Assembly: GCA_965140415.1 (NCBI GenBank)
Contig: OZ223209.1
Span: 3,264,001-3,328,000, forward strand
Source: Myxococcota bacterium
Lineage (GTDB): Bacteria; Myxococcota_A; SURF-8
Length of the DNA: 64,000 nt
Direction: 5' to 3'
A model generated the notes under the pieces. That model did not search any database, was not told the DNA's origin, and saw only the letters and a program-made list of their open reading frames with translations. Numbering within the stretch: position 1 is the stretch's first letter; each line of letters begins with the position of its first letter. Below, in pieces: positions 1,453-52,445 of the stretch. Made by a program: the position numbers and the translations under genes.

Positions 1453-4400
1453 TCAGTCCAGCCAGCCGTAAATCTGGTAGCTTCCCTGCCCCGTAACAGC
1501 CTGAACCAACAGATAGTAGCGATCCTGTGTGACTTCCCATTCAATCGACTGCATCGACTGATCTTCCATCGAGGCGACATCGTAGGTTTCCGACGTGGCA
1601 ACTTCGTCTTTTCTCAAAAAGAGGTGGAAGACGCTTTGTTGCTGGCTATCCAGAATCACGGAAAAATAGCCGCTACTCTGGAAATCGATGTAGTAAAGTT
1701 CCTGCTGAAGTTCATTCAACCTGCCTTCCACAACTTCATCCAGCGGCAAACGTATCGCCGTCTCTGTTCCGGCAAGGGAGACTGTCAGGGAAAATTCACC
1801 GGCTCCGCTATACTTGTGAACCATGATGTAATACACACCGGCCTGGGCCTGTTCGATCACGACCGTTTCATCGGCGGAGGAAGAATAGCCCCGTCCATCG
1901 TAATCTTCCGTCGTCGGCATCTCGCCAAGTCGTACATACAGATCGAAATCCGCTCCCTGTTCCGGTCCATCCAGCGAAACGGACAGATCCGCATTCGCAT
2001 CCAGCACGAACTGGTAGATCACGCTTTCTACCGCATCCGACAACGCCCCTTCCGCAGGGTCATCCGCTAGCAGCGTTTCGATTTCGGATTCACTTTCGAT
2101 TTCGATTTCAAAGCTCTTTTTATCACCGTTCATGAAGGTTTCCGCACTTCCTTCATCGGGCAGGAAAACGACCTCTACCGCATACTGCAATTCATGGATG
2201 CCGCCGCCCAGAAAGTCCAAACTGGAATAGTCAATCGCAATGCGATCCGGGTTGTCTCCATCGAAGTTGACTGCATCTTCTGCAACATCATGGTAGCTCG
2301 TGCCAATCACCGCGCCATCGTCGCCGCTCAACGGATTTCCGGAAGCATCGAATAGCCGTATTGTGGTTTGCAATTGACCACTGACCGTCCCCGGCGTGAC
2401 GCTGTAATACAGATCCCAGCGCAACGTTTTTCCGGTATCGCTTTCCGCTTCTTTATTGAAAGCGTGACCTTTGTCTTCAAACAGTGGCGACTGCGTCTCG
2501 CCTGCCGGTTGATAGGTGGTAAACACGCTCACCGATGGATCGCCGTAGAGGTTGAAGGACAGCATATTCATAAGTGTGCCATCCCCCCAGGAGAAGTAAC
2601 AGGGCTTACTGCGAACCATGGCCAAGGCACGACCGGCGCTGAAGTTTTTGGCCAGATAACTTGTGTAGTAATAGCCGAAGCTGACGTTATCCATGCGGCT
2701 GGAGTTCGGGCTGGACCAGGACGGCGAATAAAGCGTCACGCTTGTCGCTCCCATGGTGGTGACCGCCCCGCCTTTGTAAAGCAGGCTGTGGCCCAGGTTT
2801 CCGCTGCTGTCCGGTCGATGATTCAGGCAACTGACCTGGACTGTATGAGTCGGATGCTCGCTGTCGAAGCAGGAGGAAGACATGCTGCTATAGGCGAAGT
2901 CTTCCCAGTCCTTCTCGTTCATGTCGGCAATGCCATCGTTATCGGTATCTTCCAGCCAGGTTTTCCCGGCTGCGGAAGAACTGTTACCATGCGCCCACCA
3001 GGACGTAATGCCGTAACCTTTGGACCACTCATCGCACACGTTTTGGGTGCTGAAGGTACGATCCGGATCGTATTTAGACGGTTCCGCCCCACGGTTGTCA
3101 TACAGAGAGAATGGTTGCAGCTTATTGGAGGCATTCAAAAAATCACTCTTCATGCGCTCGGCGTATTTCGCGCCATCCACCGTAAAACCTCGATTGACTT
3201 CTTCTTCGCCGCCATTATCACCGTGGTCCATTTCATGGGAAAAGTCGCTGATCGGATTCGGCAATAACACCTTGCTCCGCCACTCGATATCCTGTTGTAA
3301 CTCATAATCCATCGTAAAACGCAGGATATCGTCGAGCCGATCCGTATTGTTGTTGTACACAGGAATGCGACCGACATACAGTTCCGGCGTCAGATCGACG
3401 CCGCCGTAGCCGGTATCGCCATTATTGGAGCCGTATTCACACCAGATCCCGTCACCATCCTTGTCCCAGTTGCCATTGAGATCGGCATAGTAGGCATCCG
3501 TGGCGGTCTTTTCCCAATTGTCCTTTTTCTCTTCCTTATTGTAGCGAGGCCAGCAGACGCGCATCGGCGCGCCGTTGTCGCTGCCATTGGGATCGGACAG
3601 AATCAGCAGGTATTGAATGCCTCGGCGGGCATATTCCTGCTTGAGCCAGTTTCTGGCTTTCTCTGCATTGTCCACGCCTTCCATCACACCGAAGTCATCT
3701 TCCGTGATCAACAGCACCGAGTAACCAATCGACGCTTTGTGCGCCATGAAGTCTTCTAAAACCTCACTTTTCGAAACAATAGCGTTGGTCGTCAGGATGG
3801 CATAATCGGTCTTGGCCACCATTTCCTCCTCATCCGGCGGCGGAGCAAGATAACGATTGCCCATGGTCCCGATATTGGAAAAGAGTGTTTGGGCCTGTCG
3901 ATCAAAGCTGCGATCCTGTAGCAACGTCACCTGCCGACGTCGCTCGATACTGCTTTTTTGCACGGCCACCGGCGTACTCAGATGAACGCGCAATAACGAC
4001 GTACGCAACAATTTCCCGCTTACGGGATTGTAGGAAAATGGGAAGAAGGTCGCACGTACGAACTTCCATTTGCGCATCTGCGCCGCTTCGGAAAGAAGCA
4101 AGGGAGAAGCCGGCCAGTTTTCATCCGTGTTGTAGATCTGGGTGTTTTTACCATCTACGATGTAGGGGCGCTGGGCCAGGTAGTCTTGAAACGTTGCATT
4201 CTCAAGATCGGGACGGAAATTGGCGGGACCGGCGGGAGCCAAATCGTAGGAGCCGATCACATTCACGGTTTCCTCGGAAAGCACTTCCATCGAAATCTGG
4301 CTGGTATCCGCATCCGGAGGCAGCAGTACATTGAACGAAATCGAGGGCAGATCCGGGTTTCCCGGCTCGGAAAGATTACCAAAGCCCTTTACGATGATTT

Positions 4401-4833
4401 CATCCAGCCCCTGCTCGTTCTCATTAAAGGCCAGTCGCAGGCCTTCCGTGTCGATGATGAAAGTTTGAGCGTCGGTGAAACGGATGAAGTTCTCCGGCTG
4501 GCAGACCTTGTCGGAGGCATCGGAAAATGGCAGGCAAACCTCACCGGAAAGGCAATCACTGTCTTTCGTGCAGAAATACTCACGCAGCATTTCCTCACTC
4601 TGAGCGGCTTGAGTGGGAGTCTCTTCGTCTCCCGAGAGTTCGCTGTCAATGTCACCATCGGGAAGGATGTCGCTTCCATCCCCATCGGTTTCAACGTCTC
4701 CAGCCTGTTCCTCATCGCCATCCACTAACGGGTCATCGTTGTTGTCATCGTCAGAGCAGCCGATCAGAATGGTGCAAGAAAGAAGAAAGAGAATCAGCAA
4801 GTGTATTCCGTTGGATAAACGCCCGTGCATCAT
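1453..4833 (-). CDS. Lipoprotein C25-family (gingipain-like) cysteine peptidase with propeptide and C-terminal PPC domains
   Basis: Lipobox TILIG|C, DGD linker, propeptide-like GNPDLP and FPFSYNPVSGKL, TDAYYADL, PELYVGRIP, catalytic-like WWAHG and VSC, FNLYGDP. PPC-like DFDLYVR and YYIMV motifs. Confidence 0.85.
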   Translation of the reverse strand: MMHGRLSNGIHLLILFLLSCTILIGCSDDDNNDDPLVDGDEEQAGDVETDGDGSDILPDGDIDSELSGDEETPTQAAQSEEMLREYFCTKDSDCLSGEVCLPFSDASDKVCQPENFIRFTDAQTFIIDTEGLRLAFNENEQGLDEIIVKGFGNLSEPGNPDLPSISFNVLLPPDADTSQISMEVLSEETVNVIGSYDLAPAGPANFRPDLENATFQDYLAQRPYIVDGKNTQIYNTDENWPASPLLLSEAAQMRKWKFVRATFFPFSYNPVSGKLLRTSLLRVHLSTPVAVQKSSIERRRQVTLLQDRSFDRQAQTLFSNIGTMGNRYLAPPPDEEEMVAKTDYAILTTNAIVSKSEVLEDFMAHKASIGYSVLLITEDDFGVMEGVDNAEKARNWLKQEYARRGIQYLLILSDPNGSDNGAPMRVCWPRYNKEEKKDNWEKTATDAYYADLNGNWDKDGDGIWCEYGSNNGDTGYGGVDLTPELYVGRIPVYNNNTDRLDDILRFTMDYELQQDIEWRSKVLLPNPISDFSHEMDHGDNGGEEEVNRGFTVDGAKYAERMKSDFLNASNKLQPFSLYDNRGAEPSKYDPDRTFSTQNVCDEWSKGYGITSWWAHGNSSSAAGKTWLEDTDNDGIADMNEKDWEDFAYSSMSSSCFDSEHPTHTVQVSCLNHRPDSSGNLGHSLLYKGGAVTTMGATSVTLYSPSWSSPNSSRMDNVSFGYYYTSYLAKNFSAGRALAMVRSKPCYFSWGDGTLMNMLSFNLYGDPSVSVFTTYQPAGETQSPLFEDKGHAFNKEAESDTGKTLRWDLYYSVTPGTVSGQLQTTIRLFDASGNPLSGDDGAVIGTSYHDVAEDAVNFDGDNPDRIAIDYSSLDFLGGGIHELQYAVEVVFLPDEGSAETFMNGDKKSFEIEIESESEIETLLADDPAEGALSDAVESVIYQFVLDANADLSVSLDGPEQGADFDLYVRLGEMPTTEDYDGRGYSSSADETVVIEQAQAGVYYIMVHKYSGAGEFSLTVSLAGTETAIRLPLDEVVEGRLNELQQELYYIDFQSSGYFSVILDSQQQSVFHLFLRKDEVATSETYDVASMEDQSMQSIEWEVTQDRYYLLVQAVTGQGSYQIYGWLD

Positions 4834-4978
4834 GGAGATTTCCTTCCTGGTGTTTGGTGACAGTAGTGGCCTGTACTGCTTGGCGTGGTTTTGCAATATA
4901 TGTTTTTGGTTGACTTGTCAAGCCCAGGATTGAATCAGGTATTCTTCTTGGTTCTAATGGAAAATGTGGGAAGCTTTC

Positions 4979-11597: not shown

Positions 11598-14500
11598 TTA
11601 GCGTTGAATCAGACAGGGAACGCCGGCGACGTTGATACCTACCGAAACACCATCGGGATTTTCCGGTATGGCATCCGTTTCCGGATTCGTCGCGAGTACG
11701 CCATCGTCATTCAAATCGACGTCGGGAATCGGGTCCGCCGGATCATCTCGAATCAGAATTTCCAGCGGGTTGATCATCTGGCCATCCAGATCCAATTCCA
11801 CCGCCAGATTTCCAGCCGGAACCACGCCACCCAGCAAGCTTTCATTCATGCTGACTCCGTTTGCGCCAGAAGCAAAGGTCGCGTCGATATAGGCCGGTTC
11901 CACATTCATATCCAACGCGGTTTCTCCCGTATCTAAAGAAAGGCTAAAGCGCGCTGGTTGATCCGGGTAGGTATTTAATCGTACCTGTCCGAAATCATTA
12001 ACGATTTCGACGTTTTTAAAGCGAATCATCGGCAAGCCGGTCTCTTCGTCGTAGCTGGATGGATCGATGGCGAAGGTTTCCGTTCCACTGAAATTGTCGC
12101 TGGAATCCGCATCGAGATCGACGCCGATATAACCATTGATTGTCACGACGACAGGCGGATCGCCAGGACCGGGCAACTCGGCAAGGCCGGTCAATTCCAG
12201 AATCATCAATAAGGGATCTTCAGGATCAACGATTTTATCAGCCAGAATCGGATTGGCCAGACTGCCCAAGCCAGTCAAGGCATTATCCACAGCCAGATCG
12301 CCTAAATTGCCGATCTGATCGACGTTAAATCCATCTGCCGCACCGCCGATTTGAACCACGTTCAATACGATAGCCGGGGGCGCAACGTTGGATATCGTGA
12401 TCGAATCGTCTCCCACATTTCCACGCGCATCGGTTGCACTGGCGACTAGCACGTTCTGACCTTCGACCAAGGGAACAAGCGCCGACCAGGTTGAGGTCAT
12501 GCCGCTTTCGTTATCCAGCATCACGTATACGCCATTGACGGCGAAACTCTGCAAGGTGGACAACGCCCGGTCATCCGCGATAATGCCCGTTACCTGCACT
12601 TCTCCGGCGGCAAGGCTGGCGCCGTCTTGTGGAGACGTAATCGTAACCGTTGGTGGATCGTCGGGAGCCGTGAAGGTCACGGTTACGCTTTCCTCATCGT
12701 ATCCGCCGGTGAAATCCTCGGCGCGAATGACAAGAACGTTTTCGCCATCCGCCAAAACGACACTGGCGCTGAAACTGCGGTTGAAATAATCCCAGTTGAT
12801 TGAATGAGTGTCGCCGTTCAAAGTCAGACTCAACGTAATCTGCGCCGGGTTTCCGCCTTCGGCCACCGTTCCACTGACCTCGACGGGATTCGTGTTGAAA
12901 TCCTGCCCGTTCTGAGGCGCGGTAAGCGTAATAACCGGCGGCGTGACCGGCTCGACGCGACGCACGTTAAGAGAAATCGTCGTCGTGCCACCAAGCCCAT
13001 CGGTCGCTTCGGCGCGTAGTGCATTGACGCCCATGGCCAAAGCCAGCGAGGCATCCGACTGCCAGGTTCCGGCACCTTCATCGATCGTACAAGCCACCCA
13101 GTCGCCGCTACCGATGCGCACCCGTACGGTCACATCGGAAAGCGGGCCATCGTCTGAAATCGTTCCGGTAACCACGACCGACGCTTCCGCTGTGGTCGTT
13201 CCCGGATAGGTAACAGCAAGCTCCGGGAGGTCGTTTGGCGCTTCATAGAACACCGAAACGCTGTCTTGGCCGACCTGATCATTGGTATCACGCACCGAAA
13301 GCAGCAGGCTGTTACTACCTGGCTGCAAGGTTACGGATTCCGAAATCTGTCCCGTACTTACATCGACCGTTTGCTCCTGCCCGTTGATGGAAAGCGTACC
13401 CACGCAGGTCGACAAATCCGAGTCCTGCACCGTAGCGGTAAGCGTGATATTCGGATCGGTGACGCGTGCAGGCTGCGGATCGATATCCACCACCGGGGGC
13501 AGATCGCCCAGTTGATTTTCCAAACCGCATACGCTGAAACCTTCACCGTCCGCCGTTACACCCAACAGATCCGATACGGTTTCATTGTCGATGGAAAATT
13601 CATCCTGCTCCGGCACACCCGAATCCACCGGCCAGGAGAAACGCCCGATCTCACCCGCCGTTGCGACTAAGGAAGTTCCCGCCCACAATAACTGAGGCGC
13701 ATCCTGCTGCGTGGCATGCGTATAGAAGCCATCGGCCAACGCGGAGGAAACCAGCGCATCCGCCGTGGGCGTCATCAGGTTCGCATCGCCGGAATAACTG
13801 ACGCTCATATGCGCTCCGGCAAAACTCTGCGTTCCGTCCGTACAGATCTGCAACTCTGAAAGCGTTGGCTCGGCGATCTGAATGGTGGTGCTGTCCGACA
13901 GATCGCCCGCGCTGGCAGTCACAAGCACCGCGCCTGGATCATCGTAGGAAGTAAAGGTCACCGTGACGATACCGCTTGCATCGGTCGTGGCGACACTCGA
14001 TGCGCTCAGTTCTCCCAGCGTAGTCGGGTCGAGTTCGAACTGTACTTCAGTGCCCGCCGGTACCGGCCCACCGGCATTTCGTTCCACGGTCACTGTCAGT
14101 ACCGATTGTGCGCCCTGCACCAGAATGGTTTGCGGATCGGCGCTCAGATCGATCATGGAAGGCGCATCCGGATCAATGCGCGTTACATTCAGTAGGATTT
14201 CAGTCGTCAGGCCACTTAGATCGGAAGCAAGCACCGTGATTTCATTTGCTCCCAACTCTAACTCCACCCATTGACTGAACGCCCCGCTTTCTTCGATTAC
14301 AGGCTGATACGATTCAGATCCGACGGTAATGCTTAACGGCACTGCGGCCAAGGCGATGTCGTCGGCAACCGTTCCAACGACTTCCACTCCCGTTTCCATG
14401 GTTTCCGCGCCGTTTTCAGGAGCAGTCACGGTCAAGCTCGGCGGATTCTCATCCTGCAATTCGATAACGCCCTCACTGAATGCCGCATTACCGGACAAAT

Positions 14501-17500
14501 CGGACACATCGATGCGAATCGTGTTGTCGCCAAGTTGCAAGACCATTGGCAGGTAAAAATCGTTTTCCGTGGCGTCATAAGTCGCGGCTACCGCCTCCGC
14601 AGCATTCAAGGAAACGGTCGGAGACAGCGTATCCGCCGTATCAACATCATCCGTTATTGCAAAGCGCAAGGTCTGCGCCGCTGCCGTAACAAGCGGATCC
14701 GGCGCTGTGACCTGGATAACCGGAAGTTGATTGTCTACATAGGAGATCGTCACTTCCAGTTCGCCTTCATTGCCCTGCGGATCGGCAGCGAAAATGGAAA
14801 CGGCATTGTCCCCGAGTGCAAGTGTCAACTCGCCGGTAAACGTTCCCAGCAGCGGCTCGTAGGTACAGCTAACGCGCTCCCCTTCGCCTATTGCGGCTTC
14901 AACCACAAGTTCATCGTCGCCGAAAATGTCGTGAGCGGTCCCCTTGATCGTCACTGCCGCGCGATGCACGATCAACTCATCCGGCGGGGAAACCGTCACC
15001 ACTCCATCCGTAACGGAAGTGAGAGTGATTTCAGGCGGATCGACATCGACCAGTTCCAGCGGATGTATCACCGCCTCGCTCACGTTCTCGGCCAGATCCT
15101 TGGCCTGCACCGTGATGATATTGTCTCCCAGCTTCGGTAACGTGATTTCAACTGCAAATTCGCCGTTCTCACCAAGTTCCGTTCCCAATACAGCGTACGA
15201 TTCGCCATCGGTCACCACGATTTGAACTCCGAGAATTCCTACATTGTCCGTTGCCAAGCCGGTGAGCGTCTGCACGGCTTCCGTAACTTGCGGTCCCATC
15301 GGACCGGTGACTTGCACCACGGGCGGTGTATCGTCAGTCAGCGTGACATCGCCGCTGTCGGATGCGGTCGCCCCGCGTTCATCGGTAACGGTCGCCACTA
15401 CGGTATTCAATCCCAGAGCAAGCAGAACATCCCCAGTAAACGTGCAACCGGCTTCACCGCCCGTAACGATAGCAGCGACGCCCTCCCCTTCTCTGACTCG
15501 CAAAGAAACGGTGGCCGCTTCGCAACTGCCATCGGGATCGGTAATGACACCGGAAACCGACAACAGCGGTTCCGTTACCGAATCGGGCAACGCATCCAGC
15601 TTGATGGTCGGGGCGCGATTGGCGCTTTCCTCGGAAAGATAAGCAGGCAAACCGGTCAATATGACACCGGCGGAAACGCCATCGCCGTTTTCCGTATTGT
15701 TGGTTTTATCTAACTGACCATCTTCATCCAGATCGATATCCACATCATCTTTTAACAGCGCCAAAGGAGCGATGTTCCCCAGCGCCTCCAACGGCTGGGC
15801 CAGCACCGAACAGGGAATCACACCGCCTAATAAGCCGTCTTTCAAATCGATTCCGCCCGAACGCAGGGCGCTCTGTTCGATAATGCCGGAGATCTGGGTT
15901 TCGTTGATCGTTAACGAAATCATGGCCCCTTCATCCCCCATGGGAATGGCCAAGGTAAAGACGGCAGGTCCACCTTTTAGATGAGCCACGCCATCCTCAT
16001 CCGCCCAGATATCCACACGGTCGAAATGAATCAACAGTTCCCCGTCCTCGTTAAAGGACATCGGATCGATACCGAACATTTCGGAACCACTGAAGTTATC
16101 CGTGTAATCGTCGTCCAGATCCGTGCCCATATAGCCATCCAGAGAAACCGCACCGCTTTCTCCCGGAGCAGGCAGATTGGTCAATCCGCGCAGCTTGAAC
16201 ACCAGAATCACCGATCCTTTGTCCACCGCATCTTTCAATGAGCCATTCGCCAGCGTTCCCAGCGAAGCCACGCCATTATCCGGGTCGGGATCGCCTTCCG
16301 GGCTACGCCCTTCATCGAGGTTGAAGCCTTGGGTTTCATCTCCGATCTGCACCATGTTCAGCACCAGCACCGGGTCGTCGTCGATATCCGGGCCGGTGAA
16401 GTCCGCGACGAGCGGCTCCTCTTCCTGTTCGCCATCGCCATCGGGCAGATCGCCGTCGATATCCAAATCTCCGGCGAATTCCGAATCATCGTCGCCATCC
16501 GGCACGATAAAACCGCTTTCACTATCCGAACAACCGACCGCCAGCAGCATTGGAAGCAGGAACAAGAAGAGCAGTCCCATCCAGGGCGAATCGACTCCGT
16601 GGCGACGCCGCCGCCAGAAAACTCCCAGCAGCGCAAAGGCGGCGGTCAACAACAGCAAGGAACCATCCGTATCCTGGCTCTGACAACCCAGACAACCGGA
16701 TAAATCCCCGAAAGCATCGAAAATCGAACCACCGGTCGGTTCACTCGCACCGCTAAGCACCGTACTTTCACCGGTCAGTGCATCGTATTGAATCTTCATC
16801 GTGGCGTAGCTGACGTGCGGTTCGTTATTGCCATCCAGGAAATTGTAATCGGTCACGAAAACCCGCAGCATGTTTTCACCATCGGTCAACAGGCTTTGCG
16901 CAATCGTTCCCTCCCAGTAAAGCCCTTCGGCATTGGGCAGAGCGGAAACCGTGATGGAACTGAACTCCACCAGAGGAGTAGCCGGGTCGGTCACCGGGCC
17001 GATGAAGGTTTGAATGCTCGCATTGACGGCATTGGCGGATACGCCCAGACCATTCACGATCCCGGAGAAGGGCAAATCGCCGCTATGGACGTCGTTTGGC
17101 GCGGTGATATAGATACTCGCCTGCAAGTCGCCCATCATGTCGATGAATTCGGCATTCGGATCGATTACGCTCAGTTCCGCAATACGCATGCCGCTGCCAG
17201 GCAGATCGATGGAACCGTAAGAGGACATGAACATCGGCAATACCAGATCGATCAAGGTCGGCACCGCCGCGCGTAAGGTCGTTTCATTCAACACGAAGGC
17301 CGACCAGAGCAGATCCGTATACACTTCCGGATCGGCGAGTTCCACTTCGACCTTATCCACTTCCGGGATGCCTTCGGAAGCCACATAACGAAGCGTGGCA
17401 TCGGCATACAATTCGATGGCGATATCGAACATGGCGGTTTCATACTCGCCATCACCATTGGTGTCGCCGTAGAAAGACATGACCATGTCGCCCGCACGCG

Positions 17501-20500
17501 CACGAATGCCATCCGGGTCCTGGATGCCCTCGACCGTGATCGGCAGCATAGGATGAAGCTGGATGATCATCGGCGTTCCGGTCGGAACGATTTGCTGAAC
17601 ATCCGTGCGATTCGGATTGGCCAATTCAGGAATAAAGATAGAGAAGGACGCCGTATCCAAGGAAAGCGCATCCCCCACGGTTTCCTGATCGATCGTCATT
17701 TCCAGGGTTCCCTGTGCCCATTCGCTGTAAATCAGGTAGTTGACCAGATCGTCGTTCAGCGCCACTTCCAAGGTTCGCGCCAAGCCATTCTGATCGACCA
17801 TGACCAGTTGCGGGCGACTGGCCGCATCGGGATTGGGGGTGATCAACGAACCCGGGGAATCGTAGATATCCTGTGCTGGAGGATAAGTGACCGGGTCCAG
17901 ACAGGGCAGGAAGTCATCCGGGTCTTCGGTTTCATCATCCGACTTGTCGGTAAACGCCGTCGGATCGGGACAGGGATTGCCGTAGAAATCGAGCCAGAAC
18001 TTCAACCCACTGACATCATTACTGATACTGGCGATATACAGTGCAAAGCTCGTATTTTCCTCTTCCATAAGTGGCGCAGCCAGGGCATCGCCCAGGTTGC
18101 CAAGTATGGAATCGATTTCGTTCGTAAAGGCATCGACCATGGCGTCGCGAATGGCGTCCATGGCCAAATCTAGAACCCATTCCGCGAAATCGCAATCTTC
18201 CAGTTCAAGAGTGAAATCACTTAACGTGACAGTGACCGATCCCGGTATCGAAACCAAAGCCGGACCGTCGGTACCATCCACGAAGTCCGCTTTCAAAGAG
18301 ATGGTCGCCGGGCGCGCCCTGGCATAGGCTTCACTGCCGAACCAGCAGGCCCAGTTCGAATTCATGTACATATCGACGTGCAGGTAATGGATGACCATCG
18401 TGATATCGACGTGCCCATCATTATCGATGCCCATCAATACAGTCACGCTCTGATCGCAGTTATAACGGCAACGGGGCGGATTCATGACACCGGAAGGACC
18501 ATCATAGCGGTGACCGCTACCAGGATCGCAAAACGCGAGGCCGGTTGCATCCATCGAAATGCCCGCCTCGGAAACCGATTCGTCGATCATTTCCGATCCG
18601 TCCATGGCTTCCACCTCCGTTTCCACCATGGCGGTGAAATAGCTGAGTACAGACTCCGCCAGCCCCATACCGGCTCCGTTTTTGCCGATATCGCCTCGCA
18701 GCAGGTAGTCGCCGGTCAACGCACCCTGAATGTTCAGGTTGTCGTTGGCCAATTCATCCGTGGCTGTAACACGCAACAACTGCAAACCGCCGGTATTGAA
18801 CGCCTCCTGTGGGATAGTGAACTCGAAGTCTGCATAATCGTTGCTCGTGGTAACGGGCAGATCCTGACCGTCGAATTGCACGGTTACAGCCGAAGTACCG
18901 GTGTATAAATCGGTTGCCTGCCCCGTAACCAGAATGCTGCTCGTTCCATCGTAGTTTCCCAACTCGGGAGCATTGAACTGGCCGGAACTGGAAACGTGCG
19001 CTCCGCGCCGGAATCCGTTCAAGCTGATTTCCGGTCCTTCTACATCCTGATGCACCGTGATGGCATGCTGCGCCTCATTACCTGCGCCATCTCGGGCGCT
19101 GGCGGTAACGCCATTGGCTCGCGGAATCAGCGGCAACGGTCCAAGCTGGAAGCTGCCGTCTGTGACAGTTGCCTCATAGCCGTTTACCCAGACGCCTTCG
19201 ATACCGCTTACGGCATCGGAAACCGTACCGGAGATAATCACCGTGGGAGCGTTAGTCACCACGCCATCCACGCCATCTTCCGGCAGGAAGACATAGCCAT
19301 CCCGGAAAACACGAGTGATTTCAATGACTGGAGCAACTGTATCCATCGTCACCACCAAATCGACGGTTACCAGGTTACCTGCGGTATCCTGAGCGACGAC
19401 TTGAAGCGTGTTTTCTCCTTCCGCCAGTTCCCAGTCGGGCACGGAGAAGGAGTCACCCTGTTGCAGGCTTCCATCGGGTACGCCGTTCAAACTGACAATG
19501 CGAACGGTTTCGCTGATGCCGATGATCCAAGTGTATGGAGACGTGTTGACAAACGGATCGGAAAGCAGAGTCAAGACGGGATCGATGAAATCCCCCACGA
19601 TAGTCACGGGGCCGGCGTCGGTGGTATTTCCCGCCAGATCGACCGCCTGAGCACTAAAGGTATTCTCTCCTTGCTCAATCGTGACTTCGATCTGCCAAGT
19701 TCCGGCTGAACTGTCGTAGCTCGCCGTTTCACCATTGACGCTTACGCTCTCTATGCCGTATCCATCCGAAGCCGTTCCACCGATAACTACGGTGGATTGA
19801 TTGGTCGGACTCGCTACCGGATCGATGGCAATGGCCGGAGCAGTCGCATCGTAAGTTACTGAAATCTGAACGGCTTCACTGATATTTCCCGCCAGATCCC
19901 GGGCCGTTGCACTTACGGAATGCACCCCTTCACCGGAGAACGTAACATCCGCGCCCCACAGCCATTGCCCGCTTCCCATATCGATTAGCTGGGCGGCATT
20001 GCCCTGCACCAGCACTTCCACGACATCATGAAGATCCGTAGCCGTTCCCGAGAATTGAGTCGGGCTTTGGTTCAGGTAGTCTCCTTCCAAGGGACTGTCG
20101 AAAACGATTTCCGGAGATATCGTATCCAGAGTAATCGTTGCCGGTTCGCTGAATGCACCGATTCGGCCCAAGGCATCGGCAGCACGTGCAGTAAACGAAT
20201 TCTCGCCCTCCTGGAGTTGAACGAGAGCAGCGAAACTACCATCGGGGTAGACATTGACATCGGCTGCGATCAGTTGATCCTGTAACCAGATTTCGACCAC
20301 GCAATCGTCGAGGGACTGGTCATCGGCCACTACACCACTGATGGCAAAGGTACTGTCGTTCGTAAGAACACCATCGTCATCGAGCGTCACCACCGGAGAC
20401 GCATTCAAGCCATCGAAAACGATGTGCCCGGCAGCGCGTCTGGCTGCCAATACGGCATCGCCAATCGTGAAATCGGCATTGGGTTGCGGGTTCGGGCGCA

Positions 20501-20756
20501 CCCGATGCGGATATGGATCGGCAGGATCGGACAGTAACTCTCCCGGCGCGACATCTCCTCGGGAGACATCCTGTTCCGTCGCTTCCGTTTCACCGGCAAT
20601 CAATTCAAATGCCCGTTGCACGTCCAGTTCATCAACCCCAACTGGATCGACGAGATCGGTCAGTTCATCTGCCGTAGGATCTTCCGCCAACACTGGAAAG
20701 GCCCCAAGCATAAACCAACCCAATAGAATCGCGATTACAGATAGATTCCGGACCAT
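11598..20756 (-). CDS. Giant (~3052 aa) surface protein with dockerin-like, multiple Ig-like, BPI/LBP-like, internal MYXO-CTERM plus lipoprotein signal, duplicated unknown domain and cohesin-like module
   Basis: AAGGAGG RBS before MVRNLS. Sec signal ending VLA|E. Many 'L.EGENT...A.D.AGN...D..AP.I' Ig repeats. Internal GCLGCQ..hydrophobic..RRRR followed by hydrophobic LLAVG|C. Confidence 0.8.
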   Translation of the reverse strand: MVRNLSVIAILLGWFMLGAFPVLAEDPTADELTDLVDPVGVDELDVQRAFELIAGETEATEQDVSRGDVAPGELLSDPADPYPHRVRPNPQPNADFTIGDAVLAARRAAGHIVFDGLNASPVVTLDDDGVLTNDSTFAISGVVADDQSLDDCVVEIWLQDQLIAADVNVYPDGSFAALVQLQEGENSFTARAADALGRIGAFSEPATITLDTISPEIVFDSPLEGDYLNQSPTQFSGTATDLHDVVEVLVQGNAAQLIDMGSGQWLWGADVTFSGEGVHSVSATARDLAGNISEAVQISVTYDATAPAIAIDPVASPTNQSTVVIGGTASDGYGIESVSVNGETASYDSSAGTWQIEVTIEQGENTFSAQAVDLAGNTTDAGPVTIVGDFIDPVLTLLSDPFVNTSPYTWIIGISETVRIVSLNGVPDGSLQQGDSFSVPDWELAEGENTLQVVAQDTAGNLVTVDLVVTMDTVAPVIEITRVFRDGYVFLPEDGVDGVVTNAPTVIISGTVSDAVSGIEGVWVNGYEATVTDGSFQLGPLPLIPRANGVTASARDGAGNEAQHAITVHQDVEGPEISLNGFRRGAHVSSSGQFNAPELGNYDGTSSILVTGQATDLYTGTSAVTVQFDGQDLPVTTSNDYADFEFTIPQEAFNTGGLQLLRVTATDELANDNLNIQGALTGDYLLRGDIGKNGAGMGLAESVLSYFTAMVETEVEAMDGSEMIDESVSEAGISMDATGLAFCDPGSGHRYDGPSGVMNPPRCRYNCDQSVTVLMGIDNDGHVDITMVIHYLHVDMYMNSNWACWFGSEAYARARPATISLKADFVDGTDGPALVSIPGSVTVTLSDFTLELEDCDFAEWVLDLAMDAIRDAMVDAFTNEIDSILGNLGDALAAPLMEEENTSFALYIASISNDVSGLKFWLDFYGNPCPDPTAFTDKSDDETEDPDDFLPCLDPVTYPPAQDIYDSPGSLITPNPDAASRPQLVMVDQNGLARTLEVALNDDLVNYLIYSEWAQGTLEMTIDQETVGDALSLDTASFSIFIPELANPNRTDVQQIVPTGTPMIIQLHPMLPITVEGIQDPDGIRARAGDMVMSFYGDTNGDGEYETAMFDIAIELYADATLRYVASEGIPEVDKVEVELADPEVYTDLLWSAFVLNETTLRAAVPTLIDLVLPMFMSSYGSIDLPGSGMRIAELSVIDPNAEFIDMMGDLQASIYITAPNDVHSGDLPFSGIVNGLGVSANAVNASIQTFIGPVTDPATPLVEFSSITVSALPNAEGLYWEGTIAQSLLTDGENMLRVFVTDYNFLDGNNEPHVSYATMKIQYDALTGESTVLSGASEPTGGSIFDAFGDLSGCLGCQSQDTDGSLLLLTAAFALLGVFWRRRRHGVDSPWMGLLFLFLLPMLLAVGCSDSESGFIVPDGDDDSEFAGDLDIDGDLPDGDGEQEEEPLVADFTGPDIDDDPVLVLNMVQIGDETQGFNLDEGRSPEGDPDPDNGVASLGTLANGSLKDAVDKGSVILVFKLRGLTNLPAPGESGAVSLDGYMGTDLDDDYTDNFSGSEMFGIDPMSFNEDGELLIHFDRVDIWADEDGVAHLKGGPAVFTLAIPMGDEGAMISLTINETQISGIIEQSALRSGGIDLKDGLLGGVIPCSVLAQPLEALGNIAPLALLKDDVDIDLDEDGQLDKTNNTENGDGVSAGVILTGLPAYLSEESANRAPTIKLDALPDSVTEPLLSVSGVITDPDGSCEAATVSLRVREGEGVAAIVTGGEAGCTFTGDVLLALGLNTVVATVTDERGATASDSGDVTLTDDTPPVVQVTGPMGPQVTEAVQTLTGLATDNVGILGVQIVVTDGESYAVLGTELGENGEFAVEITLPKLGDNIITVQAKDLAENVSEAVIHPLELVDVDPPEITLTSVTDGVVTVSPPDELIVHRAAVTIKGTAHDIFGDDELVVEAAIGEGERVSCTYEPLLGTFTGELTLALGDNAVSIFAADPQGNEGELEVTISYVDNQLPVIQVTAPDPLVTAAAQTLRFAITDDVDTADTLSPTVSLNAAEAVAATYDATENDFYLPMVLQLGDNTIRIDVSDLSGNAAFSEGVIELQDENPPSLTVTAPENGAETMETGVEVVGTVADDIALAAVPLSITVGSESYQPVIEESGAFSQWVELELGANEITVLASDLSGLTTEILLNVTRIDPDAPSMIDLSADPQTILVQGAQSVLTVTVERNAGGPVPAGTEVQFELDPTTLGELSASSVATTDASGIVTVTFTSYDDPGAVLVTASAGDLSDSTTIQIAEPTLSELQICTDGTQSFAGAHMSVSYSGDANLMTPTADALVSSALADGFYTHATQQDAPQLLWAGTSLVATAGEIGRFSWPVDSGVPEQDEFSIDNETVSDLLGVTADGEGFSVCGLENQLGDLPPVVDIDPQPARVTDPNITLTATVQDSDLSTCVGTLSINGQEQTVDVSTGQISESVTLQPGSNSLLLSVRDTNDQVGQDSVSVFYEAPNDLPELAVTYPGTTTAEASVVVTGTISDDGPLSDVTVRVRIGSGDWVACTIDEGAGTWQSDASLALAMGVNALRAEATDGLGGTTTISLNVRRVEPVTPPVITLTAPQNGQDFNTNPVEVSGTVAEGGNPAQITLSLTLNGDTHSINWDYFNRSFSASVVLADGENVLVIRAEDFTGGYDEESVTVTFTAPDDPPTVTITSPQDGASLAAGEVQVTGIIADDRALSTLQSFAVNGVYVMLDNESGMTSTWSALVPLVEGQNVLVASATDARGNVGDDSITISNVAPPAIVLNVVQIGGAADGFNVDQIGNLGDLAVDNALTGLGSLANPILADKIVDPEDPLLMILELTGLAELPGPGDPPVVVTINGYIGVDLDADSSDNFSGTETFAIDPSSYDEETGLPMIRFKNVEIVNDFGQVRLNTYPDQPARFSLSLDTGETALDMNVEPAYIDATFASGANGVSMNESLLGGVVPAGNLAVELDLDGQMINPLEILIRDDPADPIPDVDLNDDGVLATNPETDAIPENPDGVSVGINVAGVPCLIQR

Positions 20757-20914
20757 CAGTCGCCTCCTTGCAATGAAGACCGATTGCATTTTGTGTTACC
20801 GATAAAACGATTGCAGTCTCTTACCACTATATCGAAGAGAACGTGCTTTTCAACCGGAAATCGAGCTTCTTTGTAGTTTTACGGCAAGTAGACAGAAAAA
20901 AGGTGTGGACTGGG

Positions 20915-21259
20915 TCAGTCATCCATACCCGGAGTACGTCGCAACCGCTTTTTCTGTCCGTGTAATTGCTTGGCTGCCAGTCGGCGACGAATTGAATTTC
21001 TTGTGGGATTTGTGGCTTTGCGGGTTTTACGAGGGCGATTCAACTGCTTGAGTCGAACGATCAGACGCTGAAAGGCCATTTCCAGATTCTGGTTTTGAGA
21101 ACGGCGCTCCACCGCGATTACCGTCAACCCCGAAGGCGGATGAAACAAGCGTACGCCGGTTTCACTGGTATTGCGATGCTGCCCACCCGGACCGCTGGCC
21201 CGGAAAAAGCTTACCTCGCATTCGCGTTGCAGGGTTTCACGATCCGTACTGTAACTCAT
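20915..21259 (-). CDS. Peptidyl-tRNA hydrolase / release-factor-like protein (ArfB-like)
   Basis: ASGPGGQHRN (GGQ), RSQ and a basic C-terminal tail. Confidence 0.85.
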   Translation of the reverse strand: MSYSTDRETLQRECEVSFFRASGPGGQHRNTSETGVRLFHPPSGLTVIAVERRSQNQNLEMAFQRLIVRLKQLNRPRKTRKATNPTRNSIRRRLAAKQLHGQKKRLRRTPGMDD

Positions 21260-21344
21260 GGCGACACTTTCAACATTCTGTTTTTACTTGCCTTTTTCAG
21301 ATTAGTTCCCAATCAATTTTCGCGATATGTCCTTTTTTGATTTC

Positions 21345-21500
21345 TGTAGCGGCGGAGCGTCCGCTCGCCGACGCGTAGCATGGGTCAAGCGGAGGGAAAC
21401 GAAGCTTGCCCATGTAGCCCTCGAACACGGGCAAACCTGCGGTTTAGCCCGCGCCACCCGGAAATCAACTAGTTTTTTCGGCTTATGCCTCGCCGTTACA
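21345..21500. repeat. REP-like composite repeat (family 2, copy 2)
   Basis: Begins GTAG + palindrome (gtag cggcggagc..gctcgccg). Has a minus-strand GTGG + palindrome unit. Ends cgccgttaca, an imperfect inverted repeat of the start. Confidence 0.75.
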
Positions 21501-21558
21501 AAAAGACGTTGCTAATGATGAATGATGACTCCTCACCTTCTTCATTCTTCTGGGCAAC

Positions 21559-21999
21559 CTAACTCCGATCAAATTCGGGAGCGATGGGAACCGTCGTGGG
21601 CGCGAAGGTGCCCGCGCCGGTTGCGACAAGCCTCCCGGAAGCGGTATGGACCTGCATCTCGGCAGTAGCAATGCGTTTTCCAAGCCGCACCAGTTTGCCG
21701 GTAGAAATCAACTTCTCCTGCTTGACATGCTCCAACAATCGCACCTGAAACTCCACCGTGGCAATCCAGGTGTCATAGTGTGGCGCAACGGTAAACCAGC
21801 CGGCATTATCGAGCAAGGTGGCGAATACTCCCCCATGCACCCCATTCAAGGCATGATCGAAGTTTTCATTATATGGCAACTCGAAACAGGCGTTGCCATC
21901 GGCATCATAAGAGATTTCCATTCCAAACGCCTTTTTGATGGGCGCTCGATTGAAAAGCGCAACAAATTGCTCCCGTCGCTGTTTTAGATCCTGCACCAT
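21559..21999 (-). CDS. PaaI-family thioesterase
   Basis: NGVHGGVFATLLD motif and hotdog-fold size. Confidence 0.9.
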   Translation of the reverse strand: MVQDLKQRREQFVALFNRAPIKKAFGMEISYDADGNACFELPYNENFDHALNGVHGGVFATLLDNAGWFTVAPHYDTWIATVEFQVRLLEHVKQEKLISTGKLVRLGKRIATAEMQVHTASGRLVATGAGTFAPTTVPIAPEFDRS

Positions 22000-22141
22000 C
22001 CCAAAACAACCTTTCCAAAGTCGATGTACTTGCCGAATCGCTCCCTACCATGCCGACGGGCAGCAGCCGATGTCAAGCAAATCCTGCCTGATTGCCGGGT
22101 TTTCGTCATCACCAATTCACCTATTTTCTGCTACACGGCAG

Positions 22142-22999
22142 TTTTCCACAATCAATATCCAGGTAATAGAAAGGACATTTTATTGTCTATTTTCTATCAG
22201 TTAAATTAACTATCCACGAGTTATCCACATTCTCCACAAGGGTTTTTCACACAGCTTATCCACAAGTTATCCACAATTCAAGAAATCGAAATTCCTACAT
22301 TCATGACAGATTCGTTCTTTCTAGCCCACATCCACTTAAAAGAACTGTTTCCATTTTCACTTTTACTCACACAACCAGGATAAGGAATCCAATCAAATGC
22401 AATCGTGAAAAACGTTCTTTTTTCCACCTGATAAGCAGTTATTTATAATCTTTGTTGTTTTCCATAAACCAGCAAAAGGGATGCAACCTTGTATTACACG
22501 TAATACATAACACGTTTTTCCATTTGATTTTACTAGAGAAGCGATACCCCGATCCCGCCACAGGCCTATATTTGATGCGGAACAAATCAAACTTCGACAA
22601 TCGGTATCAATCAAATTGAACCGATGTATCATATCTGTATCATGAATGCGATTACATTGAAGAGATCGACCTGCTTCATGCAGTTGATTCCATCCCTAAA
22701 AGCAAATCAGGACAATCATACTCTGAATAGAATATTCTTATTATCACAATCTGGCCAGAACAGACCACCCATATTTGCGACATTCATAGTCCGTTTTTCC
22801 TGTTGAATTCACCTCCTACCAGCTCACAAAACGAAGTGCCTCAAATCCCCTCTTTTGGGAAACTCAAACTCTATAGATTAAAACTTAATTGTGGATAACT
22901 TGTGGATATCGTCATTTTAACAATTGTGAATAACGAATCTATAGACTTGTAATCACAAATGATTTCAGCACACTAAACCAGTATATCATCTGTGAATAA
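22142..22999. promoter_or_regulatory. DnaA-box clusters; candidate replication origin (oriC)
   Basis: TTWTNCACA matches on + at 22142, 22221, 22243, 22256, 22267 (near matches at 22210, 22230). On - at 22890, 22925, 22991 (near match at 22901). They lie in a ~1-kb AT-rich intergenic gap. Confidence 0.7.
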
Positions 23000-23076
23000 C
23001 GATTACAAATAGAAGGTTTTCCATAATTGACCGAGGATTTCCGCTGCCAGAATCCTCTAAGCATCTGAATGAACAA

Positions 23077-50867: not shown

Positions 50868-51155
50868 GGGTTGGGTTGTCGCCACCCACCCCGACCGTCG
50901 CTTGCATGGTATATGTCCAACCCTCTCCTCCCAAGCCCTACTAGGATGGTCAGACATGCAAGCGATGGTGTTTTAATATGAATTCAATTGACGAAGTGAA
51001 AAGGAACAAGTATTATGCTGAACCGTCACGTAACCAACAACATGCAGGGACATCTCAGCACAGGAAATCCGAATGTTTTCATTGGAGAGGCGCCGGAGTC
51101 TTGTTGTGTAACAACGGCACCTCAGAACCTTTGTTGTCTTGAAAAAGGAGGTATC

Positions 51156-52445
51156 ATGAAACCGCTAAGAAAACTACTCATTTTACTAACCCTGGTGTTA
51201 TTCACCTTTCCTGCCTGGGCAGACTCGGTCGACGGCGACATCATTGCAGATGGAGACGTGACATTGGACGGTGACATCGCGTCCGTCACCTGTCAAGGCG
51301 AGCGTGGCAATTGTGAAGTAATGCCGACCCTGGTAAACTGCGAATGCGCAGACGGATCTGGTTCCGGACTCGGCGGGCCTGGATTTGAGATGACCGAAGC
51401 TGCCTGTCTGGAAATCCTCGAATCCTCTTGCGCGCTTCCGCCCGAAATCTGTGGAACGGAAAAAGGCATCTGTGAAGTCCATGAAGACGGTCGCTTTTCC
51501 TGCATTTGTGCAGACGGCAGCACGGTCCCCGATCTGGATGGTGACATCGACAGCGACTGGATTGTTCCCGATGGGGACGCTCCGGTCGACGGCGATGATG
51601 GCCCAATACCTGTCGATGGCGATGCAATCCCTCAAAGTCTCGCCCCTGTCGTTGATGGCGATGTCGCAATTGACGGTGATGAGGAACAAACCACCTTGGC
51701 GTGCACAGCCGTTCTTACGGACAACTGCCCGAACGACCCACCCAATCCCGCCGATTCTTGTAGCACGGAAGCATTGACCTTATGCAACAGCATTGTCGAT
51801 TTCGTTGGAGATTGCACTTCGGAACCCTCCTTGGCCTTCCGCGTCATTCTCTGTTGCGGCATGCATGCTGAAGATGCACAAGCCTTAGAGGACATGTGGA
51901 CCTGCATACAACAAGAAGGTTGCGATAACTTCCAGACCTGTTTTGGTGGCGGAGAAGATGGCGATGCGATTGCAGACGGCGATGTAGTGAGCGTGGATGG
52001 AGACAGCGGTCAAACCACGGACGGCGATGCGATCATGGATGGAGACATCACCGACGGCGATATTCTTGTCGATGGCGATGCAATTGCCGATGGCGACACA
52101 GCCTCCCCCGATGGCGACGATGTCACAACTGATGGCGACACAGTTTCTCCCGACGGCGATGATGCCACCACCGATGGCGACACAGCTTCTCCCGATGGCG
52201 ACACAGCCTCCCCCGATGGCGACGATGTTACACCCGATGGAGACACAGCCTCCCCTGATGGTGACGATGCCACCGTCGATGGCGATGATGCCACTACCGA
52301 CGGCGATGATTCCACAACCGACGGCGACACCAATGAAGACGACGATGACGATGGTTGCCAGCACAGTGGCAATCCCGCAGGTTTGATGCTGCTGTTCAGC
52401 TTCGGTCTGCTCGCGCTGCAACGCCGCCGCCGCTTCACTCTCTAA
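51156..52445 (+). CDS. Secreted Cys-rich, DGD-repeat protein with C-terminal MYXO-CTERM-like sorting signal
   Basis: AGGAGG RBS, signal peptide AWA|D, Cys-rich modules, C-terminus DDGCQHSGNPAGLMLLFSFGLLALQRRRRFTL. Confidence 0.82.
   Translation: MKPLRKLLILLTLVLFTFPAWADSVDGDIIADGDVTLDGDIASVTCQGERGNCEVMPTLVNCECADGSGSGLGGPGFEMTEAACLEILESSCALPPEICGTEKGICEVHEDGRFSCICADGSTVPDLDGDIDSDWIVPDGDAPVDGDDGPIPVDGDAIPQSLAPVVDGDVAIDGDEEQTTLACTAVLTDNCPNDPPNPADSCSTEALTLCNSIVDFVGDCTSEPSLAFRVILCCGMHAEDAQALEDMWTCIQQEGCDNFQTCFGGGEDGDAIADGDVVSVDGDSGQTTDGDAIMDGDITDGDILVDGDAIADGDTASPDGDDVTTDGDTVSPDGDDATTDGDTASPDGDTASPDGDDVTPDGDTASPDGDDATVDGDDATTDGDDSTTDGDTNEDDDDDGCQHSGNPAGLMLLFSFGLLALQRRRRFTL
52089..52340 (+). repeat. 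12 x 21-bp coding tandem repeat (DGDxxxx heptads)
   Basis: DGDTASP DGDDVTT DGDTVSP DGDDATT DGDTASP DGDTASP DGDDVTP ... Confidence 0.9.

Follow-up and report, generated by a model that had tools for sequence, protein, structure and literature searches.

The 64,000-nucleotide stretch of DNA analyzed here, referred to below as the window, lies on contig OZ223209.1 (positions 3,264,001 to 3,328,000 of the forward strand) of the Myxococcota bacterium assembly GCA_965140415.1. Its minus strand holds a giant gene, a single open reading frame (ORF) at window positions 11598-20789 (P0001), in which no stop or frame break interrupts a central junction where two export signals stand back to back. The first is a MYXO-CTERM tag, a sorting signal normally found at the C terminus, and the second is a lipoprotein signal, normally found at the N terminus, giving the layout of a candidate two-product surface polyprotein. 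The public gene call for the giant ORF (P0003) starts 11 codons later than P0001. The features of the gene, with residues numbered along P0001, are the following.

11598-20789, minus strand: whole ORF, 3063 codons plus stop
20688-20789, minus strand: N-terminal Sec signal peptide of the signal-peptidase-I type, residues 1-34, ending ...VLA before EDP (by eye and from a hydropathy peak)
18951-20426, minus strand: immunoglobulin (Ig)-like array of the N-half, residues ~122-613, Big_13 and OmpL47-type repeats (domain searches)
16710-18872, minus strand: domain N, residues 640-1360, probable tandem BPI/LBP/CETP-like (TULIP) domain (Pfam match below cut-off, structure model with Foldseek, hhalign)
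16602-16700, minus strand: internal MYXO-CTERM tag, residues 1364-1396, with C-L-G-C, spacer, transmembrane helix 1376-1392 and RRRR (TIGR03901, hydropathy, alignment)
16581-16613, minus strand: predicted cytoplasmic loop, residues 1393-1403 (topology inferred from the positive-inside rule)
16530-16580, minus strand: internal lipoprotein signal, h-region at residues 1404-1416 plus lipobox L-A-V-G-C (lipoprotein rule, hydropathy)
16374-16529, minus strand: acidic Asp/Gly-rich tether of the predicted mature lipoprotein, residues 1421-1472 (sequence)
15630-16373, minus strand: domain X copy 1, residues 1473-1720, beta-barrel with an EF-hand-like D-x-D-L-N-x-D-G loop (BLAST, structure model, homologues)
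12378-15629, minus strand: Ig-like array of the C-half, residues 1721-2804, with 11 Glucodextran_B stretches, Big_1 and Big_7 (domain search)
11601-12377, minus strand: domain X copy 2, residues 2805-3063, with no C-terminal sorting tag after it (BLAST)

The initial annotation had described a MYXO-CTERM-like signal in mid-ORF followed, with no stop, by a lipoprotein signal, and the open frame, the hidden Markov model match and the lipobox were all confirmed. Residues 1361-1440 of the giant ORF read without a stop as GDLSGCLGCQSQDTDGSLLLLTAAFALLGVFWRRRRHGVDSPWMGLLFLFLLPMLLAVGCSDSESGFIVPDGDDDSEFAG. In a hydropathy scan of the giant protein, strong hydrophobicity is confined to three stretches, namely the N-terminal signal, residues 1376-1392, and residues 1401-1422. 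The tag carries Cys1366 (codon 16692-16694) and Cys1369 (16683-16685), and its RRRR cluster occupies residues 1393-1396. From there to residue 1420, the chain shows an Arg-rich n-region, a 16-residue hydrophobic core that includes Met1404 (codon 16578-16580), and the lipobox ending at Cys1420, the codon of which is at 16530-16532, exactly where the initial annotation had placed the putatively lipidated Cys. The internal tag is thus far from any C terminus, with 1667 residues following the Arg cluster and 1643 following Cys1420, and the lipoprotein signal, beginning at residue 1393 of one open frame, is not at the N terminus of the chain. A missed stop or indel at the junction had been raised as a point to check, and public-run contigs showed none within the stretches that they cover: a Logan contig of run X1, possibly the source sample, spans window positions 15900-17300 with 0 differences at a depth of 40.8, and a contig of run X2 covers 16584-16765 with 0 differences, leaving 16418-16583, which hold the lipobox, uncovered.

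The tag scores above the curated cut-off of 20 bits for TIGR03901 (MYXO-CTERM). The match, at residues 1364-1396, extends over profile positions 2-34 of 34 and reaches 24.7 bits in the whole protein, 27-29.5 bits in fragments and 30.3 bits in a six-frame search, ranking second among the 18 over-cut-off matches in this 5.98-Mb single-contig genome; the same six-frame search gave no match in any of 14 control genomes. A stop follows the tag within a few codons in 16 of the 18 matches, and only two continue in frame to a second hydrophobic stretch and a lipobox, the window ORF and another at G000:C1:848102. A profile of the junction led to the same picture when searched against the 8645 frames of at least 150 residues in the genome. 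Two frames only gave a full match (62.4 and 60.7 bits), and the other matches among the 40 best rows covered one half: tag halves at most 9 residues from the frame end and signal-peptide halves within the first 113 residues of stop-to-stop frames.

The lipoprotein signal was assessed with a permissive PROSITE-like pattern (charged n-region, hydrophobic h-region, lipobox ending in Cys). When read from the Arg cluster onwards, as the initial annotation had suggested, all six junctions tested passed this rule, with the Cys at virtual position 24-30. The S-D-S that follows Cys1420 is the commonest +2 to +4 triplet among the roughly 700 crude lipoprotein candidates of the genome. The likeness drawn earlier to other lipoproteins of the window also holds, with five window ORFs passing the rule and four of them being acidic and Asp/Gly-rich after the Cys, and the protein used for comparison with the tag (51015-52445, plus strand) does have a true C-terminal MYXO-CTERM. 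That protein is Cys-rich and extremely acidic, with dozens of D-G-D repeats before its C-terminal tag, and its translation probably starts at an internal Met before the signal peptide, downstream of the first ATG in the frame.

The junction is conserved in relatives. A 500-residue query across it gave stop-free full-span matches in four of the nine other genomes of the order, one in the same family and three in other families; in the remaining five, this query detected no member of the giant family. The orthologous frames are of 3094-3151 residues, with one more cut by a contig end, and share 36-50% identity. All four begin with a signal of the signal-peptidase-I type, as in the window ORF, its position being kept, and all four display the same succession of Cys motif, helix, Arg cluster, short basic loop, second helix and lipobox Cys, the latter at about residue 1400-1470, with the same C-terminal end. 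The junction columns that never vary across the five orthologous genomes hold the first Cys, a Gly, an Arg pair, a Leu and the lipobox Cys. All five have a loop of net positive charge between acidic outer flanks, which fits a cytoplasmic loop. Only two of the five have a Met where the second hydrophobic stretch begins, and the charges of the n-region lie upstream of that position, so that the second signal requires read-through translation.

Beyond the order, a word-indexed protein search retrieved nine near-length proteins including that of the window (2481-3134 residues), and the junction is present in every one of them. In all nine, the Cys motif precedes the basic cluster by 21-26 residues (in P0009 by 8, measured from an extra Cys), and the lipobox Cys, in a lipobox-like box, follows it by 17-25. 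Metagenome proteins with the same open junction are 33-57% identical, and in each of the 11 database homologues the fusion lies at this place. When residues 1061-1760 were searched exhaustively with HMMER against 1.84 billion representative proteins, 54 hits were obtained, comprising five full-length fused proteins, two distant giants with their own junction (P0013 and P0014), a 132-residue fragment spanning the junction and a 59-residue fragment of the N side only, which says nothing either way on split forms; the remaining hits match domain X alone. No protein of the giant family stopping after the tag, i.e., no split form, was found among these 1.84 billion representatives. The word-indexed search gave no shorter homologue at E<=0.001 among its 8000 best candidates, a weak negative, and a search of genome contigs with the 500-residue junction query gave 25 pattern matches, none of them confirmed. 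Relatives are thus fused at the same junction and not split. The initial annotation had named a stop or frameshift in the reads and a general split in relatives as findings that would speak against it, and neither was found.

The other frame with a full junction encodes a second candidate polyprotein of 1670 residues, outside the window at G000:C1:845600-850612 (plus strand; locus L031, 5601-10610). Its order is a lipoprotein-like N terminus, a homologue of domain N, an internal MYXO-CTERM and a lipobox, followed by a Cys-rich module, Asp/Gly repeats and a large C-terminal part; the N terminus passes the lipobox rule in two of the six members read. This second family is fused at the junction in the orthologues of G001, G002, G003, G004, G006, G007, G008 and G009, and a 500-residue query across its junction found it in 93 of the 401 phylum genomes sampled, mostly fused, with frames mostly of 1380-1800 residues and no internal stop among the 101 matches listed. 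Six short frames were fetched and read. Three of them (G309, G018 and G219) are split: gene 1 ends a few residues after the basic cluster of the tag, and gene 2, with its own start and lipoprotein signal, begins there in another frame. In one (G144), the frame stops at the tag and the following 110 codons contain no lipoprotein gene, and two are fused and cut by contig ends. Because three orthologues are split precisely there, the two halves can exist as separate exported proteins, and these split orthologues are the best comparative argument that the fused chain yields the same two products.

The domains upstream of the tag are homologous in the two families (hhalign to A5, probability 94.2, E 1.2e-7, 398 columns), and the two junctions may share one origin. 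BLASTP of the whole giant against the second-family protein gave nothing significant, the best E value being 0.19, at the junction. At the scale of the phylum, a profile built from eleven junctions matched 180 of the 401 genomes at E<=0.001, mostly through ordinary C-terminal tags. By hand count among the 150 matches listed, both halves were spanned by about 60 stop-free frames and by 8 with a stop. Twenty-three loci were read outside the seed set, revealing 14 with a lipobox after an internal tag, 6 with a second signal resembling that of signal peptidase I and 3 plain C-terminal tags. Same-frame gene pairs, a MYXO-CTERM end followed by a signal-peptide start, were also seen at L070 (G014:C1:536923-537096), L072 (G276) and L073 (G331). 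Counted from likely start codons, one codon separates the pair in G014, and the genes adjoin directly at the stop in G276 and G331; one point mutation in the stop of such a pair would create a fused junction.

The two halves of the giant protein have different contents. The N-half comprises a dockerin-like start, Ig-like repeats and the 720-residue domain N, a candidate member of the BPI family. Pfam PF02886 scores 20.4 bits on a fragment and 17.9 on the whole protein, below its cut-off of 23. An AlphaFold model computed from five sequences is of modest quality (predicted local distance difference test [pLDDT], 62; predicted template modeling score [pTM], 0.42), and Foldseek with this model ranks BPI (4.9e-14), CETP (1.1e-12) and LBP (1.3e-12) at the top, with TM-scores of only 0.19-0.37; the top BPI/CETP/LBP ranks extend from E 4.9e-14 to 1.1e-11 at probability 1.00 and are followed by other TULIP-fold proteins. 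The ESM Atlas lists the BPI family at rank 12 with a score of 0.82, which is a lead only, and a sequence search of the PDB gave no match to domain N. We read domain N as a probable BPI-like lipid-binding domain.

The C-half runs from the acidic tether through domain X and the Ig array to a second domain X. The two copies of domain X are 36% identical in piecewise BLAST, the self-BLAST of the whole protein showing the diagonal only. The model of domain X is a beta-barrel with an EF-hand-like loop (pLDDT, 84.4; pTM, 0.81), for which Foldseek found no match at E<=0.001, VIA-align gave a best Z of 7.2 to generic small beta-barrels within background, an EF-hand at E 0.064 was the sole result of the PDB sequence search and the ESM Atlas gave unnamed clusters only. 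No Pfam family was found for domain X in the Pfam copy searched; the public index lists PF27332 on giant proteins. Domain X also occurs in many small proteins, and among the 50 proteins listed (P0012-P0061), 22 have their own N-terminal lipobox signal. Stand-alone domain X proteins of 230-500 residues occur in many metagenomes (P0018, P0019, P0045, P0046, P0050 and others), and P0045, P0046 and P0050 carry a lipobox signal of their own. A complex prediction of domain N (A4) with domain X (A3) scored 0.00 against a mark of 0.32, which counts neither way.

The enzymes that two such signals call for are encoded in the genome. A 230-residue CPBP protease of the myxosortase family matches NF040914 (Mrt_core) with 126 bits against a cut-off of 100, its best equivalog being MrtP at 192.6 bits, below the cut-off of 250. 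LspA and Lnt are each over their curated cut-offs, as are two GspD secretins, and there are four Lgt-like loci, two of them over the curated cut-off. In one place lspA lies directly upstream of an lgt paralogue (G000:C1:3699576-3701033, plus strand); the further loci are at 4253002, 3967149 and 144530. In the myxosortase paper, MrtX is reported to cleave MYXO-CTERM in Myxococcus xanthus and in Escherichia coli, and Lgt is named as the leading candidate for lipidating the MYXO-CTERM Cys (PMC11980579). The extra Lgt paralogues could be specialized for this lipidation.

With moderate confidence, we propose a model in which the giant protein would be one precursor, cut into an adhesin that bears a BPI-like domain and is anchored at its C terminus, and a lipoprotein of 1644 residues anchored at its N terminus. 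The N-terminal signal peptide would export the N-half, Ig-like array and BPI-like domain included, via Sec, until the transmembrane helix of the tag acts as a stop-transfer and the Arg cluster remains in the cytoplasm. This cluster would double as the stop-transfer of the first part and the n-region of the second: the second hydrophobic stretch would re-insert as an internal lipoprotein signal and the C-half would be exported in turn, resulting in a helical hairpin that leaves the two large parts on the outer side of the inner membrane. Lgt would then lipidate Cys1420, LspA would cut before it and Lnt would acylate it, freeing a C-product of 1644 residues in which the N-terminal lipid anchor is followed by the tether and by an Ig array between two copies of domain X. 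Independently, the Cys motif 1366/1369 would be lipidated and the myxosortase-family protease would cut after it, giving an N-product of about 1330 residues with a C-terminal lipid anchor that may reach the cell surface via type II secretion, and a hairpin peptide of about 50 residues would be discarded. What the analysis shows is that both signals are present and conserved, that relatives are fused and that the enzymes are encoded. The interpretation offered in the initial annotation, that of a membrane hairpin cut into two independently anchored proteins, is supported as far as sequence comparison goes, each of the computed checks that it had proposed having turned out in its favor.

Polyproteins threaded through membranes are known from flavivirus and alphavirus structural proteins, in which stop-transfer and internal signals alternate and membrane peptidases cut the chain into proteins. 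Those belong to eukaryotic viruses and are cut by signal-peptidase-I-type cleavage in the endoplasmic reticulum, whereas here LspA and a CPBP-type myxosortase are proposed to act, and both products would be lipid anchored.

The nearest bacterial precedent is MXAN_5598 of M. xanthus, for which an internal MYXO-CTERM, present "in rare cases" and likely due to a gene fusion, has been described, the authors proposing that the N-part is processed and surface anchored (Guo, Haft and Wall, mBio 2025, PMC11980579). As in the window ORF, the tag lies in mid-ORF after an adhesin-like N-part. Unlike the window ORF, the C-part is an outer-membrane beta-barrel with OmpA, and in the portion of the paper drawn on here no lipoprotein signal is mentioned after the tag, the case being a single remark with no family survey (PMC11980579). 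The window ORF differs by its lipobox signal after the tag, its 1644-residue lipoprotein C-part and a layout conserved family-wide. A fusion of the MXAN_5598 type with a second signal for signal peptidase I was considered for the window and rejected, as the second signal contains a lipobox and domain library searches of the C-half found no OmpA or barrel family. Six loci elsewhere in the phylum, L051 (G126), L057 (G183), L060 (G155), L062 (G035), L063 (G149) and L065 (G283), have a second signal resembling that of signal peptidase I after the internal tag and then outer-membrane-looking sequence, and these are probably of the MXAN_5598/TraAB-like class.

HVO_0405 of Haloferax volcanii provides an experimental precedent for the tag, with a centrally located archaeosortase site that is cut in vivo (PMC7157517), and therefore tags of this kind can work internally. 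The two cases share a tripartite sorting signal of the C-terminal type in the middle of a fusion; HVO_0405 differs in being archaeal, in relying on PGF-CTERM and archaeosortase and in being a strain-specific fusion and not a conserved family, and the sections drawn on here report no second export signal after the tag and follow only the N-terminal product (PMC7157517). The myxosortase paper cites both LPXTG work and the HVO_0405 work (PMC11980579).

Another comparison is offered by NCBIfam NF058595, the "lipo-invert putative C-terminal anchoring domain", which is over its cut-off in 4 of the 401 genomes. Its true members (L084-L087, in G257, G292, G382 and G249) show a transmembrane helix, RRGRR and a signal-like helix carrying a lipobox Cys; a Gly-rich run comes next, made of poly-Gly in three of the four, and a beta-strand tail of about 30-35 residues leads to the stop. 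As at the window junction, an internal lipoprotein signal is reached through a hairpin in mid-chain. In contrast, NF058595 has no Cys motif before the first helix, and is thus not a MYXO-CTERM, and only about 40-45 residues follow the Cys, anchoring one protein with no second large product. The window junction was rejected as a member, scoring 16.4-17.8 bits against a cut-off of 37. In the genome of the window, the family gave 99 weak matches and none over cut-off, and it is non-specific at this level, as 14 of 14 controls match at E<=1. No paper with the term "lipo-invert" was found.

As judged by titles and the beginnings of abstracts, and supplementary tables aside, nothing was found in print on a MYXO-CTERM followed by a lipoprotein signal, nor, at the same depth, a relevant paper on a bacterial polyprotein with an internal lipoprotein signal peptide; the preprint by Haft makes no mention of "internal", "lipobox" or "polyprotein". 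Thus, the internal MYXO-CTERM is known already from MXAN_5598, and what is new is its coupling to a lipoprotein signal and its conservation in a family.

Several points weigh against the two-product model. To our knowledge, acceptance by Lgt and LspA of a signal away from a free N terminus is unproven for bacteria, and we infer the topology, both cleavages, both lipidations and the final locations. The orthologue of G006 retains only the first Cys of the tag motif, and in the distant homologue P0012 the loop measures about 57 residues and the box, which ends in Q-C, is non-canonical. Scanned singly, only 6 of the 11 junction segments reach TIGR03901 at E<=0.01. The lipoprotein rule flags some 700 candidates in the crude six-frame ORFs of the genome. 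Finally, given the shared upstream domain, the two families would not be independent inventions of the junction.

Only one of the two cuts might be made, either by LspA, freeing the C-half with the N-half left in the inner membrane, or by the myxosortase, freeing the N-half with the C-half on an uncleaved signal-anchor. Both signals are indeed out of their normal context, with a tag that is not C-terminal and a signal peptide that is not N-terminal, and P0012 with its non-canonical box and G006 without the second tag Cys could each be accommodated in this way. Moreover, the MrtX study reports that the mrtX mutant is not completely defective in sorting, and gives the lipidating enzyme as unknown (PMC11980579). 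However, an idle signal is hard to square with a tag Cys and a lipobox Cys that are invariant in five orthologues and both present in the nine near-length homologues, and each half of the split second-family orthologues carries its own complete signal. We regard a single cut as unlikely.

A protein that is not cut at all would be a giant adhesin that a two-helix hairpin holds in the inner membrane, with signal-like features left over from an ancient gene fusion and no role in processing. The fusion is indeed stable and of long standing, no split member of the giant family was found, and a hairpin alone would anchor the protein. Nevertheless, a hairpin needs neither an over-cut-off TIGR03901 match nor invariant Cys residues at set spacings on either side of the basic cluster across 36-50% identity, and every other tag half of the genome in the 40 best rows is at most 9 residues away from the end of its frame. 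It would also trap Ig arrays, acidic tethers and a BPI-like domain at the inner membrane, far from their expected site at the surface. This explanation appears quite improbable.

Two products could also arise by separate translation from one frame, the C-half starting at Met1404 and the upstream frame merely being without a stop. ATG1404 does stand at the start of the second hydrophobic stretch, with GGAG 14 nucleotides upstream in the loop codons, and tight tag-stop-signal gene pairs exist elsewhere, such as that of G014 with its single intervening codon. Yet the Met is there in only two of five orthologues, a chain begun at Met1404 would be without a charged n-region, and the read-through frame is open in all 11 database homologues, which makes an internal start very improbable indeed. 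An assembly or sequencing artefact or a very recent stop loss in the strain, for which only the prior oddity of the layout would speak, is refuted by the independently assembled public-run contig spanning the junction with 0 differences and by the open junction shared with four further genomes of the order and with metagenome proteins that are 33-57% identical, and is given virtually no credence.

The precursor cut twice is thus the reading that we retain, and it can be extended, far more tentatively, to a general hypothesis. The tag-plus-signal hairpin may be a dedicated bacterial polyprotein linker, cut by the CPBP-type myxosortase after the lipidated tag Cys and by LspA before the lipobox Cys, which would deliver, at 1:1, two lipoproteins of opposite polarity, the first with a C-terminal and the second with an N-terminal anchor; in the giant family these would be a BPI-like, lipid-handling adhesin and a partner co-acting at the surface. 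The homologous BPI-like domain might then mark an ancient two-component surface module of Myxococcota. We consider this extension possible and somewhat doubtful.

The surroundings of the giant gene are unrelated to it, with neighbors encoding a patatin, an M23 peptidase, MscS, PlsB, a C25 peptidase and RsgA, and none of eight neighboring window genes was found within the 20-kb loci around three orthologues. The C25 (gingipain-family) peptidase, at 1453-4896 on the minus strand, is of the lipoprotein type, with a propeptide, a PPC domain and, after the lipobox, an acidic tether like that of the giant protein. Upstream of the giant gene, window positions 20790-23076 have a lower G+C content (45%) and small ORFs, among them one of 114 residues with a GGQ motif (ArfB-like by eye) and one of 146 residues resembling a hotdog thioesterase (by eye), and an Rfam search of the 2.5 kb upstream of the giant gene gave no match.

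Bacterial export is taught as one signal for one product, and membrane-threaded secreted polyproteins are a textbook feature of eukaryotic viruses and not of bacteria. Taken with its relatives and with the second family, which is phylum-wide, the giant gene suggests that making two lipid-anchored envelope proteins from a single chain is routine in Myxococcota, by a proposed route in which a tag for C-terminal sorting is joined directly to a lipoprotein signal of the N-terminal type. If this is true, LspA and Lgt would be able to act on internal signals, the myxosortase would have natural internal substrates with a size shift that is easy to follow, and annotation should count such ORFs as two mature proteins. 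Such a chain would also be a natural tool for the co-export of two surface proteins in a fixed ratio. Moreover, the BPI-like domain beside the anchor points to lipid handling at the surface, in bacteria known for the exchange of outer-membrane material.

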